From Escherichia coli (GTDB taxonomy: Bacteria; Pseudomonadota; Gammaproteobacteria; Enterobacterales; Enterobacteriaceae), in NCBI RefSeq assembly GCF_044324875.1, contig NZ_CP172185.1: DNA of 64,000 bases. One strand, written 5' to 3'. Position 1 is the first letter of the stretch; each line of letters opens with the position of its first letter. Shown piece by piece: positions 5,843 through 55,329 of this stretch. The position numbers were made by a program, and so were the translations under genes. Below the pieces are notes generated by a model. The model was not told where the DNA came from. It ran no database searches and saw only the letters and a list, made by a program, of their open reading frames with translations.

Positions 5843-6646
5843 ATGAACGCATTATTAACCAATCCCTTTAAAGAACGTTTACGCAAGGGCGAAGTGCAAA
5901 TTGGTCTGTGGTTAAGCTCGACTACTTCTTATATGGCAGAAATTGCCGCCACCTCCGGTTATGACTGGTTGCTGATTGACGGGGAGCACGCGCCAAACAC
6001 CATTCAGGATCTTTATCACCAGCTACAGGCGGTAGCGCCCTATGCCAGCCAACCCGTGATCCGTCCGGTGGAAGGCAGTAAGTCGCTGATTAAACAAGTC
6101 CTGGATATTGGCGCGCAAACTCTACTGATCCCGATGGTCGATACTGCCGATCAGGCACGTCAGGTGGTGTCTGCCACGCGCTATCCTCCCTACGGTGAGC
6201 GTGGTGTCGGGGCCAGTGTGGCACGGGCTGCGCGCTGGGGACGCATTGAGAATTACATGGCGCAAGTCAACGATTCGCTTTGTCTGTTGGTGCAGGTGGA
6301 AAGTAAAACAGCACTGGATAACCTGGACGAAATCCTCGACGTTGAAGGGATTGACGGCGTGTTTATTGGACCTGCGGATCTTTCTGCCTCGTTGGGCTAC
6401 CCGGATAACGCCGGGCACCCGGAAGTGCAGCGAATTATTGAAACCAGCATTCGGCGGATCCGTGCTGCGGGTAAAGCGGCTGGTTTTCTGGCTGTGGCTC
6501 CTGATATGGCGCAGCAATGCCTGGCGTGGGGAGCGAACTTTGTCGCTGTTGGCGTTGACACGATGCTCTACAGCGATGCCCTGGATCAACGACTGGCGAT
6601 GTTTAAATCAGGCAAAAATGGGCCACGCATAAAAGGTAGTTATTGA
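5843..6646 (+). CDS. rhmA: 2-keto-3-deoxy-L-rhamnonate aldolase (HpcH/HpaI family)
   Basis: ORF 5798..6646; start at ATG 5843 ([13 protein letters not shown]) after AAGGA; HpcH/HpaI aldolase-like sequence. Confidence 0.85.
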
Positions 6647-6652
6647 TATCAA

Positions 6653-6680
6653 AGGCCCATGGGGATCGGCTGTGGGCCTG
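6653..6680. terminator. Bidirectional hairpin between convergent rhmA (+) and ypaA (-)
   Basis: aggcccatggggatcggctgtgggcct is a GC-rich inverted repeat lying between the two stop codons. Confidence 0.5.
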
Positions 6681-6686
6681 TGTTAA

Positions 6687-6872
6687 TTAGTGGTTATTCG
6701 CTGCCAGGTCGGCTTCGCTTAGCTGGGTGGCTGCGAGCACCAGGTCACGATCAATGCCCTGTTCCAGCATGCGCAAAGCAATTTTAATGGCTTGTTCATG
6801 CATGCCTTCTAATTTACCCTCCTGCCAGCCAATTTGATGTCCTTCCTGCCGTAGCCGTTCAGCAATAGTCAT
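6687..6872 (-). CDS. ypaA: Small protein duplicating the C-terminal tail module of RpnE
   Basis: 61-aa [42 protein letters not shown]..., nearly identical to the last ~76 aa of the upstream rpnE product; own SD AAGGAGAG before the ATG; DNA duplication visible (6830-6890 vs 7079-7130). Confidence 0.7.
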   Translation of the reverse strand: MTIAERLRQEGHQIGWQEGKLEGMHEQAIKIALRMLEQGIDRDLVLAATQLSEADLAANNH

Positions 6873-6884
6873 TAATCTCTCCTT

Positions 6885-7844
6885 TTAATGACCGTTCGGA
6901 ATATCAGCATCAGTGAGTTGGGTTGTCGCCAGCACAATCTTACGTTCAAAGCCCTGTTCCAGCATGCGCAAGGCAATTTTAATGGCTTGTTCATGCATAC
7001 CTTCTACTTTGCCTTTCTGCAACCCCTCCAATTTCCCCTCCTGCCAACCTTCAATTTTACCTTCCTGCCAGCCAATTTGATGTCCTTCCTGCCGCAGCCG
7101 TTCAGCAATAGTCATTAATCTCTCCTTTTGTAGTGGTGAACGTTCGGCAATCTCCTCAATAAAACGGGTGAAACGGGAGGTATCGCCGCATTGCAGCAGA
7201 TAATTAAACAGCGTTTGTAGCTGGCTGTCATTAGTGAAGCCTCTAACCAAAAGCGTGGTGATCCTGTCGACCATACCGATTAAATCGCGGTCGCGAATAT
7301 GCTTTTGAATCAGTTCAAGCAGAGCTATACGCCGATGTTGCATGATCTCATCGTCAGGTACGATGGTGATATCCACCAACGGAAAAGCTTCGGTGTACAA
7401 CTGCCGGGCAAGTTGCGGATCGTCAAACTCATCCAGCCAGTTGAGTGAGTACGGGTAGGGCGAGGTTTCGCCATGATAAAACAGCAATGGTACCACCAGC
7501 GGGACTCTGTCATAGCCTTTGTCCAGATGACGTTGCATGGCGGCAGTGGCATAGCGCATTAGCCGAAAGGCCATATTCTTTTCCGCGGAACTTTGATGTT
7601 CAATCACGCAGTAGATATACCCGTCACCGTCGCTGGTTTCCACCGACCACAAAACATCCGAGTAGTAAGCGCGTAAACTTTTTTCAATAAAGCTGGTGGG
7701 TTCCAGGCGTAAGGTTTGCAGGTTGCAAAGCTTGCGCAGCGGCTCTGGCAGATGTATTTCGAGAAAATCCCGTGCGGTTTCGGGTGTGAACATAAAGGTT
7801 TTAAACACCGCATCATGCGGGGAGGAGGTTGTTGATTCGGTCAT
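6885..7844 (-). CDS. rpnE: Rpn (YhgA-like, PD-(D/E)XK) recombination-promoting nuclease family protein
   Basis: 319-aa ORF; N-terminus and overall sequence resemble the YhgA-like/transposase_31 family (yfaD in K-12 nomenclature); C-terminus has QEGKxEG repeats and a helical tail. Confidence 0.8.
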
Positions 7845-8036
7845 GGTTGTCCGTCACCTGATATTTATGATGACGCGACATTACGGTTATCCCAGACCTT
7901 TGACATCTGCCAGTTTCAGCCTTTGCGAGACGTTTTCAGAGGAATTTTCACTGCGTTGCAACGTATACATTGAGCGCGGAATCATGCACGCAAAAATGCC
8001 CGGTAACAACATGCTTACCGGGCATCAGATGGGAGT

Positions 8037-12101
<4,065 letters not shown>

Positions 12102-48390: not shown

Positions 48391-51240
48391 TTGAAATACC
48401 TTGCTTCTTTTCGTACAACCCTGAAAGCCTCGCGCTACATGTTCAGAGCATTGGCGTTAGTGCTCTGGCTGTTGATTGCTTTTTCATCCGTTTTTTACAT
48501 CGTTAATGCGTTACATCAGCGAGAATCGGAAATTCGTCAGGAATTTAATCTGAGTTCCGATCAGGCTCAGCGCTTTATTCAACGCACCTCTGATGTGATG
48601 AAAGAGCTGAAGTACATCGCCGAAAATCGCTTATCGGCAGAAAACGGTGTGCTTTCCCCGCGTGGACGAGAAACGCAGGCGGATGTGCCTGCGTTTGAAC
48701 CGCTGTTTGCCGACTCCGATTGTTCCGCAATGAGTAACACCTGGCGAGGCTCTCTGGAGTCATTGGCGTGGTTTATGCGCTACTGGCGCGATAATTTCTC
48801 TGCAGCTTACGATCTCAACCGGGTATTTTTAATCGGCAGCGATAACCTCTGCATGGCCAATTTCGGTCTGCGTGATATGCCAGTGGAACGCGATACCGCG
48901 TTGAAAGCGTTGCATGAACGCATCAATAAATATCGAAATGCACCACAAGATGATAGCGGCAGTAACCTCTACTGGATCAGCGAAGGTCCGCGCCCTGGCG
49001 TCGGGTATTTTTACGCGTTGACGCCAGTTTATCTGGCGAACCGGTTGCAGGCGCTTTTGGGTGTCGAGCAGACCATCCGGATGGAGAACTTTTTCTTACC
49101 TGGTACGTTGCCGATGGGGGTTACCATTCTTGATGAAAATGGTCATACCCTGATTTCGCTTACCGGACCAGAAAGCAAAATTAAGGGCGATCCTCGCTGG
49201 ATGCAGGAACGCTCCTGGTTTGGCTATACGGAAGGGTTCCGGGAGCTGGTGCTGAAGAAAAATCTGCCACCCTCATCGCTAAGCATCGTGTATTCGGTGC
49301 CGGTTGATAAGGTGCTGGAACGCATTCGCATGTTGATCCTTAACGCAATTTTGCTGAATGTGCTTGCCGGAGCTGCATTGTTTACTCTCGCGCGGATGTA
49401 CGAGCGGCGTATTTTCATTCCGGCGGAAAGCGACGCCTTGCGACTGGAAGAACATGAGCAGTTTAATCGCAAGATTGTCGCCTCCGCGCCAGTGGGTATC
49501 TGCATTTTGCGTACCGCTGATGGCGTCAATATTTTAAGTAACGAACTGGCGCATACCTATCTCAATATGCTTACGCATGAGGATCGCCAACGACTGACGC
49601 AAATTATCTGTGGGCAGCAGGTCAATTTTGTTGATGTCCTGACCAGCAACAATACCAATCTGCAAATCAGCTTCGTCCATTCGCGCTATCGTAATGAAAA
49701 CGTGGCCATTTGTGTGCTGGTGGATGTTTCTTCGCGCGTGAAGATGGAAGAGTCGTTGCAGGAGATGGCACAAGCAGCGGAACAGGCGAGCCAGTCAAAA
49801 TCGATGTTCCTTGCCACCGTCAGTCATGAGCTGCGAACGCCGCTGTATGGCATTATCGGTAACCTGGATCTGTTGCAAACCAAAGAGTTACCGAAAGGCG
49901 TCGATCGTCTGGTGACGGCAATGAACAACTCTTCCAGCCTGTTGTTGAAAATTATCAGCGATATTCTCGATTTCTCGAAGATTGAATCGGAACAGTTGAA
50001 GATCGAACCGCGTGAGTTTTCACCGCGTGAAGTGATGAACCACATCACCGCCAACTATTTACCGCTGGTGGTACGCAAGCAGTTAGGCTTGTACTGCTTT
50101 ATTGAACCGGATGTGCCAGTGGCCTTAAATGGCGACCCGATGCGTTTACAGCAGGTCATCTCCAACCTGTTGAGTAACGCCATAAAATTCACCGATACCG
50201 GCTGTATAGTTTTGCATGTTCGCACTGATGGCGATTATCTCTCTATCCGTGTTCGCGATACCGGCGTGGGGATTCCGGCGAAAGAAGTGGTGCGCTTGTT
50301 TGATCCCTTCTTCCAGGTCGGAACGGGCGTACAGCGTAACTTCCAGGGGACCGGTCTGGGTCTGGCGATTTGTGAAAAACTGATCAGCATGATGGACGGC
50401 GATATCTCGGTAGATTCAGAACCGGGAATGGGTAGCCAGTTTACCGTGCGTATTCCGTTGTACGGCGCTCAGTACCCGCAGAAAAAAGGCGTGGAAGGGT
50501 TGAGTGGTAAACGCTGCTGGCTGGCGGTCCGCAATGCGTCGCTCTGTCAGTTCCTGGAAACCAGTTTGCAGCGCAGCGGCATCGTCGTTACAACATACGA
50601 AGGGCAGGAACCGACTCCCGAAGATGTGTTAATCACTGACGAGGTAGTGAGCAAAAAATGGCAGGGTAGAGCGGTAGTGACCTTCTGTCGTCGCCATATT
50701 GGTATTCCGCTGGAGAAAGCGCCAGGAGAGTGGGTACACAGTGTGGCTGCTCCGCATGAGCTACCGGCATTGTTGGCGCGTATTTATTTGATCGAGATGG
50801 AGAGCGACGATCCTGCTAACGCTCTGCCGTCGACGGACAAAGCGGTCAGCGATAATGACGATATGATGATTCTGGTCGTGGATGATCATCCGATTAACCG
50901 ACGTCTGCTGGCAGATCAGTTGGGATCGTTGGGCTATCAATGTAAAACCGCGAATGATGGCGTCGATGCGCTTAATGTACTTAGCAAGAATCATATTGAT
51001 ATCGTGCTTAGCGACGTCAACATGCCAAATATGGATGGTTACCGCTTGACGCAACGCATTCGTCAGTTGGGACTGACGTTGCCGGTAATCGGAGTAACTG
51101 CTAATGCGTTGGCTGAAGAGAAGCAGCGGTGTCTGGAGTCTGGTATGGACAGCTGCCTGTCGAAGCCGGTAACGCTGGATGTGATAAAACAGACGCTAAC
51201 GGTATATGCCGAGAGGGTCAGGAAATCGCGGGAATCGTAG
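48391..51240 (+). CDS. rcsC: Hybrid sensor kinase RcsC
   Basis: 949-aa ORF MKYLASFRTTLKASRYMFRALALVLWLL... with H-box (SHELRTPL), ATPase and C-terminal receiver domain. Confidence 0.95.
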   Translation: MKYLASFRTTLKASRYMFRALALVLWLLIAFSSVFYIVNALHQRESEIRQEFNLSSDQAQRFIQRTSDVMKELKYIAENRLSAENGVLSPRGRETQADVPAFEPLFADSDCSAMSNTWRGSLESLAWFMRYWRDNFSAAYDLNRVFLIGSDNLCMANFGLRDMPVERDTALKALHERINKYRNAPQDDSGSNLYWISEGPRPGVGYFYALTPVYLANRLQALLGVEQTIRMENFFLPGTLPMGVTILDENGHTLISLTGPESKIKGDPRWMQERSWFGYTEGFRELVLKKNLPPSSLSIVYSVPVDKVLERIRMLILNAILLNVLAGAALFTLARMYERRIFIPAESDALRLEEHEQFNRKIVASAPVGICILRTADGVNILSNELAHTYLNMLTHEDRQRLTQIICGQQVNFVDVLTSNNTNLQISFVHSRYRNENVAICVLVDVSSRVKMEESLQEMAQAAEQASQSKSMFLATVSHELRTPLYGIIGNLDLLQTKELPKGVDRLVTAMNNSSSLLLKIISDILDFSKIESEQLKIEPREFSPREVMNHITANYLPLVVRKQLGLYCFIEPDVPVALNGDPMRLQQVISNLLSNAIKFTDTGCIVLHVRTDGDYLSIRVRDTGVGIPAKEVVRLFDPFFQVGTGVQRNFQGTGLGLAICEKLISMMDGDISVDSEPGMGSQFTVRIPLYGAQYPQKKGVEGLSGKRCWLAVRNASLCQFLETSLQRSGIVVTTYEGQEPTPEDVLITDEVVSKKWQGRAVVTFCRRHIGIPLEKAPGEWVHSVAAPHELPALLARIYLIEMESDDPANALPSTDKAVSDNDDMMILVVDDHPINRRLLADQLGSLGYQCKTANDGVDALNVLSKNHIDIVLSDVNMPNMDGYRLTQRIRQLGLTLPVIGVTANALAEEKQRCLESGMDSCLSKPVTLDVIKQTLTVYAERVRKSRES

Positions 51241-51432
<192 letters not shown>

Positions 51433-55090: not shown

Positions 55091-55183
55091 AAAAAAAACC
55101 GGATGCGAGGCATCCGGTTGAAATAGGGGTAAACAGACATTCAGAAATGAATGACGGTAATAAATAAAGTTAATGATGATAGC
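55091..55183 (-). ncRNA. micF: MicF antisense sRNA
   Basis: Minus-strand sequence gctatcatcattaactttatttattaccgtcattcatttctgaatgtctgtttacccctatttcaaccggatgcctcgcatccggtttttttt matches micF as I recall it, including the terminal stem-loop and U-run; divergent from ompC. Confidence 0.85.
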
Positions 55184-55329
55184 GGGAGTTATTCTAGTTG
55201 CGAGTGAAGGTTTTGTTTTGACATTCAGTGCTGTCAAATACTTAAGAATAAGTTATTGATTTTAACCTTGAATTATTATTGCTTGATGTTAGGTGCTTAT
55301 TTCGCCATTCCGCAATAATCTTAAAAAGT

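Follow-up and report, generated by a model that had tools for sequence, protein, structure and literature searches.

The window analysed here, a stretch of 64,000 nucleotides of Escherichia coli DNA, very probably carries the two-copy version of the RpnE system of Escherichia, that is, the published RpnL/RpnS gene-within-gene arrangement together with an RpnE-Ss copy. Gene rpnE would give the full-length PD-(D/E)XK nuclease-family protein RpnE-L, and a strong internal SD-ATG at M244 would also give the 76-aa RpnE-S, identical to the C-terminal helical domain of RpnE-L, with ypaA (RpnE-Ss) providing a third, free-standing version of that domain. The rpnE-ypaA arrangement, its interpretation, and the mapping of its start sites are already known and in print. 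Rpn is a textbook case of an antitoxin located inside a toxin gene, and this locus matters as an example and not as a discovery. The repeat numbers of the two tail copies, which vary independently and are usually unequal, are a modest addition to the main text of Zhong et al. (PMC10400941).

Anatomy of the rpnE-ypaA locus

The locus sits between glpC and yfaU, as in E. coli, and comprises the following elements:

7992-8022, minus strand: terminator-like hairpin of glpC with a U-run (-20.2 kcal/mol, z -4.8, then UUUUU), separating rpnE from glpABC
6885-7844, minus strand: rpnE (yfaD), ORF for the full-length product RpnE-L, 319 aa; ATG 7844-7842, stop TAA 6887-6885
7218-7823, minus strand: PD-(D/E)XK / Transposase_31 nuclease domain, residues 8-209 (Pfam PF04754, E 8.5e-88)
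7120-7127, minus strand: internal Shine-Dalgarno AAGGAGAG, read off the sequence; the same in K-12, where it is the site of mapped initiating ribosomes
6885-7115, minus strand: rpnE-S, in-frame internal ORF of 76 codons; ATG 7115-7113 (residue M244), stop in common with rpnE
6999-7070, minus strand: array of 12-nt (four-residue) repeats in the rpnE tail (TRF period 24, 3 copies), five units more than in K-12
6877-6884, minus strand: Shine-Dalgarno of ypaA, AAGGAGAG, within the 12-nt gap 3' of the rpnE stop
6687-6872, minus strand: ypaA (rpnE-Ss), 61 aa; ATG 6872-6870, stop 6689-6687; carries a single repeat unit, and its last helix has diverged
6653-6679, no strand assigned: weak hairpin between the convergent genes ypaA and yfaU (-12.1 kcal/mol, z -2.2)

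The start module inside rpnE, AAGGAGAGATTAATG, lies in frame with its ATG at 7115-7113, and the gap between AGGAG and the ATG is 6 nt. An internal SD and start codon that open the C-terminal domain are kept in all rpnE loci sampled. The first-pass annotation, made from the letters of the sequence, had placed an in-frame SD and ATG at the head of a 76-codon tail of rpnE, which is borne out base for base, as is its description of the tail module recurring in a 61-codon gene just past the rpnE stop. The distance from this stop to the ATG of ypaA is exactly 12 nt, and a module of 15 nt, AAAAGGAGAGATTAATG, is identical at the internal start of rpnE and at the start of ypaA.

The primary start of rpnE (7845-7870, minus strand) is not preceded by an AGGAG-like Shine-Dalgarno, with GGTGACGGACAACC found before the ATG, whereas the internal and ypaA sites are strong. 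This contrast fits the published finding that RpnS is in excess relative to RpnL. A simple consensus scan of positions 6500-8100 revealed no sigma-70-like internal promoter; in published dRNA-seq data an internal TSS is present in all rpn genes (PMC10400941). The strong terminator-like hairpin marks the end of glpC upstream of rpnE, and the hairpin at 6653-6679 is likely the end of the rpnE-ypaA transcript, a function assigned to it tentatively.

An antisense ORF of 76 codons (6888-7118, plus strand) covers nearly exactly the region of rpnE-S. Its ATG and stop arise from CAT-TAA and from the palindrome ATTAAT of the SD-ATG module, both reverse-complemented, and the overlap is probably a mechanical coincidence.

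Gene ypaA is a separate ORF with its own SD, the closest relative of which is the tail of the rpnE gene immediately upstream. Its annotation varies, from 'hypothetical protein' in K-12 to 'Rpn/YhgA-type helix-turn-helix domain-containing protein' in newer records, and in many complete genomes (L002, L003, and L007-L011 among the loci extracted here) the NCBI pipeline flags it as a pseudogene ('incomplete; missing N-terminus'). Since the ORF is intact and has its own SD in all flagged loci that were extracted, this flag looks like an annotation artefact.

The nuclease and tail domains compared with known Rpn systems

RpnE scores 707.7 bits against the NCBIfam RpnE equivalog NF007418 (cut-off 583) and 172.7 bits against TIGR01784 (cut-off 52.1), while the 416 bits that it reaches with the RpnA model lie below the cut-off of the latter, 583. 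As the NF007418 score exceeds its cut-off, the gene names rpnE and ypaA are valid by homology. The N-terminal Transposase_31 domain places RpnE among the Rpn/YhgA-like recombination-promoting nucleases (PF04754, COG5464). All residues defined as the active site in RpnA (PMC5350276), namely D11, D63, E82, Q84, and R94, as well as the PDDEI motif, are found in RpnE at the same positions, with PDDEI at residues 163-167. The dN/dS ratio for the first 243 codons of rpnE, calculated for 21 distinct alleles, is about 0.07; judged by this ratio, the N-domain is under purifying selection. Matches of RpnE to FliH were rejected, since they are far under the cut-off, extend over the EG-rich repeats, and are thus compositional. 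PADLOC 2023 has no model for an Rpn system and returned only a weak, unrelated match to a 'putative invertase'.

The tail domain is homologous to RpnA-S, described as a dimeric three-helix bundle within an L2S2 complex (PMC10400941). Searched with a profile of the tail family, the PDB yielded the RpnA-S chain of 7TH0 at E 5.6e-9; the family profile was needed to reach this entry, as a phmmer search of the PDB with the full RpnE sequence yielded only a chance match. Designed PPR and helical-repeat proteins also ranked high in the profile search, although they were rejected as sums of ~10 sub-threshold repeats, each with i-Evalue >30. The AF2 model of YpaA has a pLDDT of 75.6, and its top match in the PDB according to Foldseek, which is also the only meaningful one, is again 7th0 (RpnA-S), with a probability of 1.00 and 42% identity, yet with E 0.08 and an rmsd of 9.2. 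Pfam family PF27070 (HTH_Rpn_C) is precomputed on proteins identical to both tail copies, and a Pfam-A scan of YpaA, run with a release that does not contain PF27070, gave nothing significant. In the AF2 monomer of RpnE-S, the region of the repeats has pLDDT <50, so that an extension of the helix is neither supported nor contradicted by this model.

Both small proteins are known to be translated in K-12. Ribo-RET experiments (Meydan 2019, bioRxiv 10.1101/520783) showed that retapamulin arrests ribosomes at internal in-frame starts in each of the five rpn genes, and the resemblance of the internal product of rpnE to the separate gene ypaA, described as its free-standing copy, was noted there. 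Zhong 2023 (PNAS, PMC10400941) presented Onc112/retapamulin profiles for rpnE-ypaA in K-12 and detected RpnE-S and YpaA, the latter renamed RpnE-Ss, with chromosomal SPA tags and immunoblots. The start-site mapping that had been proposed for the internal ATG and for ypaA has thus already been published for K-12, with initiation at both sites, and the expectation that the tail is made within RpnE and also as two small proteins agrees with the Ribo-RET, Onc112/retapamulin, and SPA-tag results obtained in that strain (10.1101/520783, PMC10400941). Between -45 and +20, the internal start has the same context in the window as in K-12, and a single nucleotide distinguishes the two upstream of ypaA; with contexts so nearly identical, the translation evidence from K-12 transfers to this DNA by close inference. 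The identity of 98% between the internal product of rpnE and YpaA given in bioRxiv 10.1101/520783 differs from that of the K-12 sequences analysed here (BW25113, L001), in which an indel of four residues and some ten substitutions separate RpnE-S from YpaA, corresponding to roughly 82% identity.

The DNA of the window is not that of K-12. The K-12 locus is the same as that in the window in its location between glpC and yfaU, its three products, its identical SD-ATG modules, and the 12-nt spacer. However, RpnE of K-12 consists of 299 aa, with a tail of 56 aa and no extra repeats, whereas the 319-aa protein of the window has five extra four-residue repeats. YpaA in the window has M24 in place of L24 of K-12, together with a few other substitutions, and the DNA of the two loci is about 96-98% identical. 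Among 5,426 complete E. coli genomes, the best match over the rpnE-ypaA locus is 98.1% identical, and for a further 12 kb of the window the highest identity is about 98-99%.

RpnA-L and RpnA-S (7TH0) share with RpnE the PF04754 domain, the active-site residues, the internal start at M244, and a homologous tail bundle, but no separate tail gene comparable to ypaA follows RpnA. Toxicity, nuclease activity, and inhibition by RpnA-S have been demonstrated for RpnA, and for RpnE they are assumed by analogy. In turn, rpnC is accompanied in some E. coli strains by a downstream rpnC-Ss, an independent second small tail gene that arose separately and in another paralog; in the rpnC system, whether a given S neutralises a given L depends on the number of repeats. 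Like the classical type II toxin-antitoxin systems, Rpn pairs a toxic enzyme with a small helical protein antitoxin that blocks it, and both are linked to phage defence. Unlike in the classical type II systems, the Rpn antitoxin is not the product of a separate upstream gene but an in-frame internal product identical to the C-terminal domain of the toxin.

Divergence and recombination of the two tail copies

RpnE-S and YpaA are identical in residues 1-20. When the DNA of the rpnE tail is aligned with ypaA, the module and the first 71 aligned nucleotides (69/71 identical) are followed by a 48-nt indel, then by 60 nt with 56/60 identical, and finally by ~65 nt in which the identity falls to about 57%. 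The 5' two-thirds of the two sequences are therefore homogenised (about 97%) and their 3' ends are distinct. In a tblastn search of the window with YpaA, only YpaA itself and the rpnE tail were matched (E 1.7e-26), and no second rpn gene is present within the window. The rpnE tail and ypaA are a true duplication and not a chance similarity. In exact-protein look-ups, the neighbour of YpaA is always rpnE, and the dN/dS ratio of YpaA is about 0.22.

The tails vary in their number of four-residue units. In the window there are five such units in the RpnE tail and one (EGKL) in YpaA; the corresponding numbers in K-12 are zero and one. The length of the tail shifts among strains in 4-aa steps, with values of 56, 64, 72, 76, 80, 84, and 88 aa sampled for RpnE, and of 57, 61, 65, 69, 73, 77, 81, and 89 aa for YpaA. 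Three sources supplied the two-copy classes, namely complete genomes, a scan of metagenomes, and look-ups of exact proteins; the last were used because the DNA scan of metagenomes gave only 12 loci, mostly single-copy. Expressed as the lengths of RpnE-S and YpaA in residues, the classes are 56/61 (K-12), 56/77, 64/73, 72/57, 72/73, 76/57, 76/61 (the window), 76/65, 80/77, 84/61, 88/73, and 88/57, the last with a divergent downstream protein. The number of repeats is unequal in 11 of these 12 classes. The sole exception is 72/73, where both copies have four units, and the idea that the numbers always differ was rejected on account of this class. The sampled sequences fit a pattern in which the repeats of the rpnE tail and of ypaA vary independently and usually differ in number. 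The last ~22 residues of the tails fall into two separate types, each stable from strain to strain.

In locus L043 (GCA_016586755.1), rpnE has been split into calls of 242 aa and 75 aa; a one-codon deletion is located inside the repeat array, so that small indels, too, arise in this region.

The rpnE locus is present in 5420 of 5426 complete E. coli genomes, and the two-copy junction, consisting of the RpnE-type end, the SD, and the start of ypaA, in 3131 of the 5426 (58%). The ypaA-type 3' end is found in 5407 of the 5426 genomes (99.6%). The ~42% of genomes without the two-copy junction have a single gene that joins the RpnE N-domain to a tail of the ypaA type, as in O157:H7 and BL21, as well as in loci L005, L006, and L012. 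These fused alleles agree with the published loss of the downstream copy, which was attributed to deletion or fusion by authors who also proposed a recombinational origin for it (PMC10400941). The fused allele of L004 keeps five RpnE repeats, whereas L015 and L023 carry the single repeat of the ypaA type, which implies that crossovers happened on both sides of the repeat array. From the sequences of these alleles, the two tail copies act as direct repeats that recombine with each other, and this recombination would account for the fused single-copy alleles of about 42% of the E. coli genomes.

A different small protein was seen in L018 (metagenome contig SKEH01015850.1), where an rpnE gene with an 88-aa tail is followed by a divergent protein of 57 aa, MTIAERLQEVGRRKGKREGQHAEALRIAQRMLDDGIARETVVKITGLTADEIAALAH. 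It is 49% identical to YpaA and shares its first seven residues, and the SD module is present upstream. The downstream slot can thus hold a tail of a different lineage.

Possible roles of RpnE-S and YpaA

The RpnL/RpnS pairs have been described as gene-within-gene toxin-antitoxin and antiphage systems, in which RpnS blocks the growth inhibition, SOS induction, and DNA cleavage caused by the cognate RpnL; this was reported for RpnA, B, C, and P2 only, with the plasmid-borne RpnP2 protecting against T-even phages (PMC10400941). The toxin/intragenic antitoxin logic that the first-pass annotation ascribed to rpnE is supported in outline, with the published toxicity and neutralisation covering these four proteins and not RpnE, as K-12 RpnE was inactive when overexpressed (PMC5350276). 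By analogy with them, RpnE-S would use its long first helix to pair with the equivalent domain of RpnE-L, keeping the nuclease inactive until it is released by a trigger, which is presumably infection by a phage. The number of four-residue repeats in the first helix, known to differ among strains in RpnS proteins (PMC10400941), would decide which partners fit. In RpnC, one added repeat abolishes neutralisation unless both partners carry it (PMC10400941).

Since RpnS is identical to the C-terminal domain of its own toxin, the two co-evolve by necessity, and YpaA is the exception. As an antitoxin of the neighbouring RpnE-L, YpaA would be required to match it in the number of repeats, which it does not do here (one versus five). 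If the mismatch rule, known from RpnC only, holds for RpnE as well, YpaA would usually not be a cognate inhibitor of its neighbour. With one repeat instead of five and with another last helix, YpaA is less likely to be an extra dose of antitoxin than a paralog that is non-cognate or tuned differently. The question of YpaA bears on how the specificity of toxin-antitoxin pairs diversifies once the antitoxin escapes the co-evolution imposed by the overlap.

We can speculate further that YpaA might be non-cognate to the adjacent RpnE-L in most strains, the window and K-12 included, with the repeats of helix 1 evolving independently, and that the two-tail locus might then be a cassette system, or the free copy a decoy or an orphan antitoxin whose target would be a phage factor or RpnE alleles that are non-self. 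This extended proposal is tentative and has a low probability. If it were true, recombination between the tail copies would reset the number of repeats and the last helix of both toxin and antitoxin, and hence the specificity for the partner or the trigger.

A related explanation sees YpaA as a spare tail cassette, from which recombination or gene conversion would swap the repeats and the last helix of RpnE-L/S, thereby resetting toxin-antitoxin or phage-trigger specificity, or as a decoy that titrates a phage factor targeting RpnS. The homogenised 5' two-thirds (about 97%) with distinct 3' ends, the single-copy alleles, where crossovers to either side of the repeats have joined the RpnE N-domain to a ypaA-type end, and the occurrence of this end in 99.6% of genomes all point in this direction, as does the recombinational origin or loss of the downstream copy proposed also by the authors of PMC10400941. 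However, direct repeats recombine without any selected function, the translation and conservation of YpaA (dN/dS about 0.22) suggest a role at the protein level, and the phage factor would be hypothetical. We therefore consider this explanation rather unlikely.

The first-pass annotation had suggested that the extra copy adds either dosage or a diverged variant, and it is the diverged variant that stands, with its four-repeat difference and its other last helix. That YpaA is a second cognate antitoxin raising the dose of RpnE-S seems doubtful, although the SD-ATG and the first 19-20 residues are identical and helix 2 nearly so, YpaA is expressed in K-12, and one allele class has equal repeats in both copies. 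Against it stand the unequal repeat numbers in 11 of the 12 two-copy classes, with five versus one in the window, and the loss of protection caused in RpnC by a single extra repeat. The divergence of the last ~22 residues (~57% identity in the DNA), with their two stable types, also speaks against simple dosage, as does the lack of a second copy in about 42% of genomes.

The least probable explanation, which would make RpnE a paralog that is domesticated or inactive, and its small proteins leftovers or DNA-binding HTH regulators instead of antitoxins, draws on the classification of the C-terminal domain as HTH (PF27070, the PGAP name, and an HHpred remark in PMC10400941) and on the work of Kingston et al. 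2017 (PMC5350276), where overexpressed K-12 RpnE was inert in all assays, with no recombination, killing, or SOS induction, but those constructs co-expressed RpnE-S, which would mask the toxicity of RpnE, and the retention of all active-site residues, the dN/dS of about 0.07 in the N-domain, and the presence of the locus in 5420/5426 genomes speak against decay. In the published rpn work, no RpnE-L construct without the internal start is reported.

The two-copy RpnE system thus remains the preferred reading of the locus. Elsewhere in the window no tRNA genes were found, and the gene for the MicF sRNA (116.8 bits) is located at 55091-55184 on the minus strand, with two adjacent naRNA4/REP-type elements at 51240-51430; these are ordinary E. 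coli content near ompC and rcsC.
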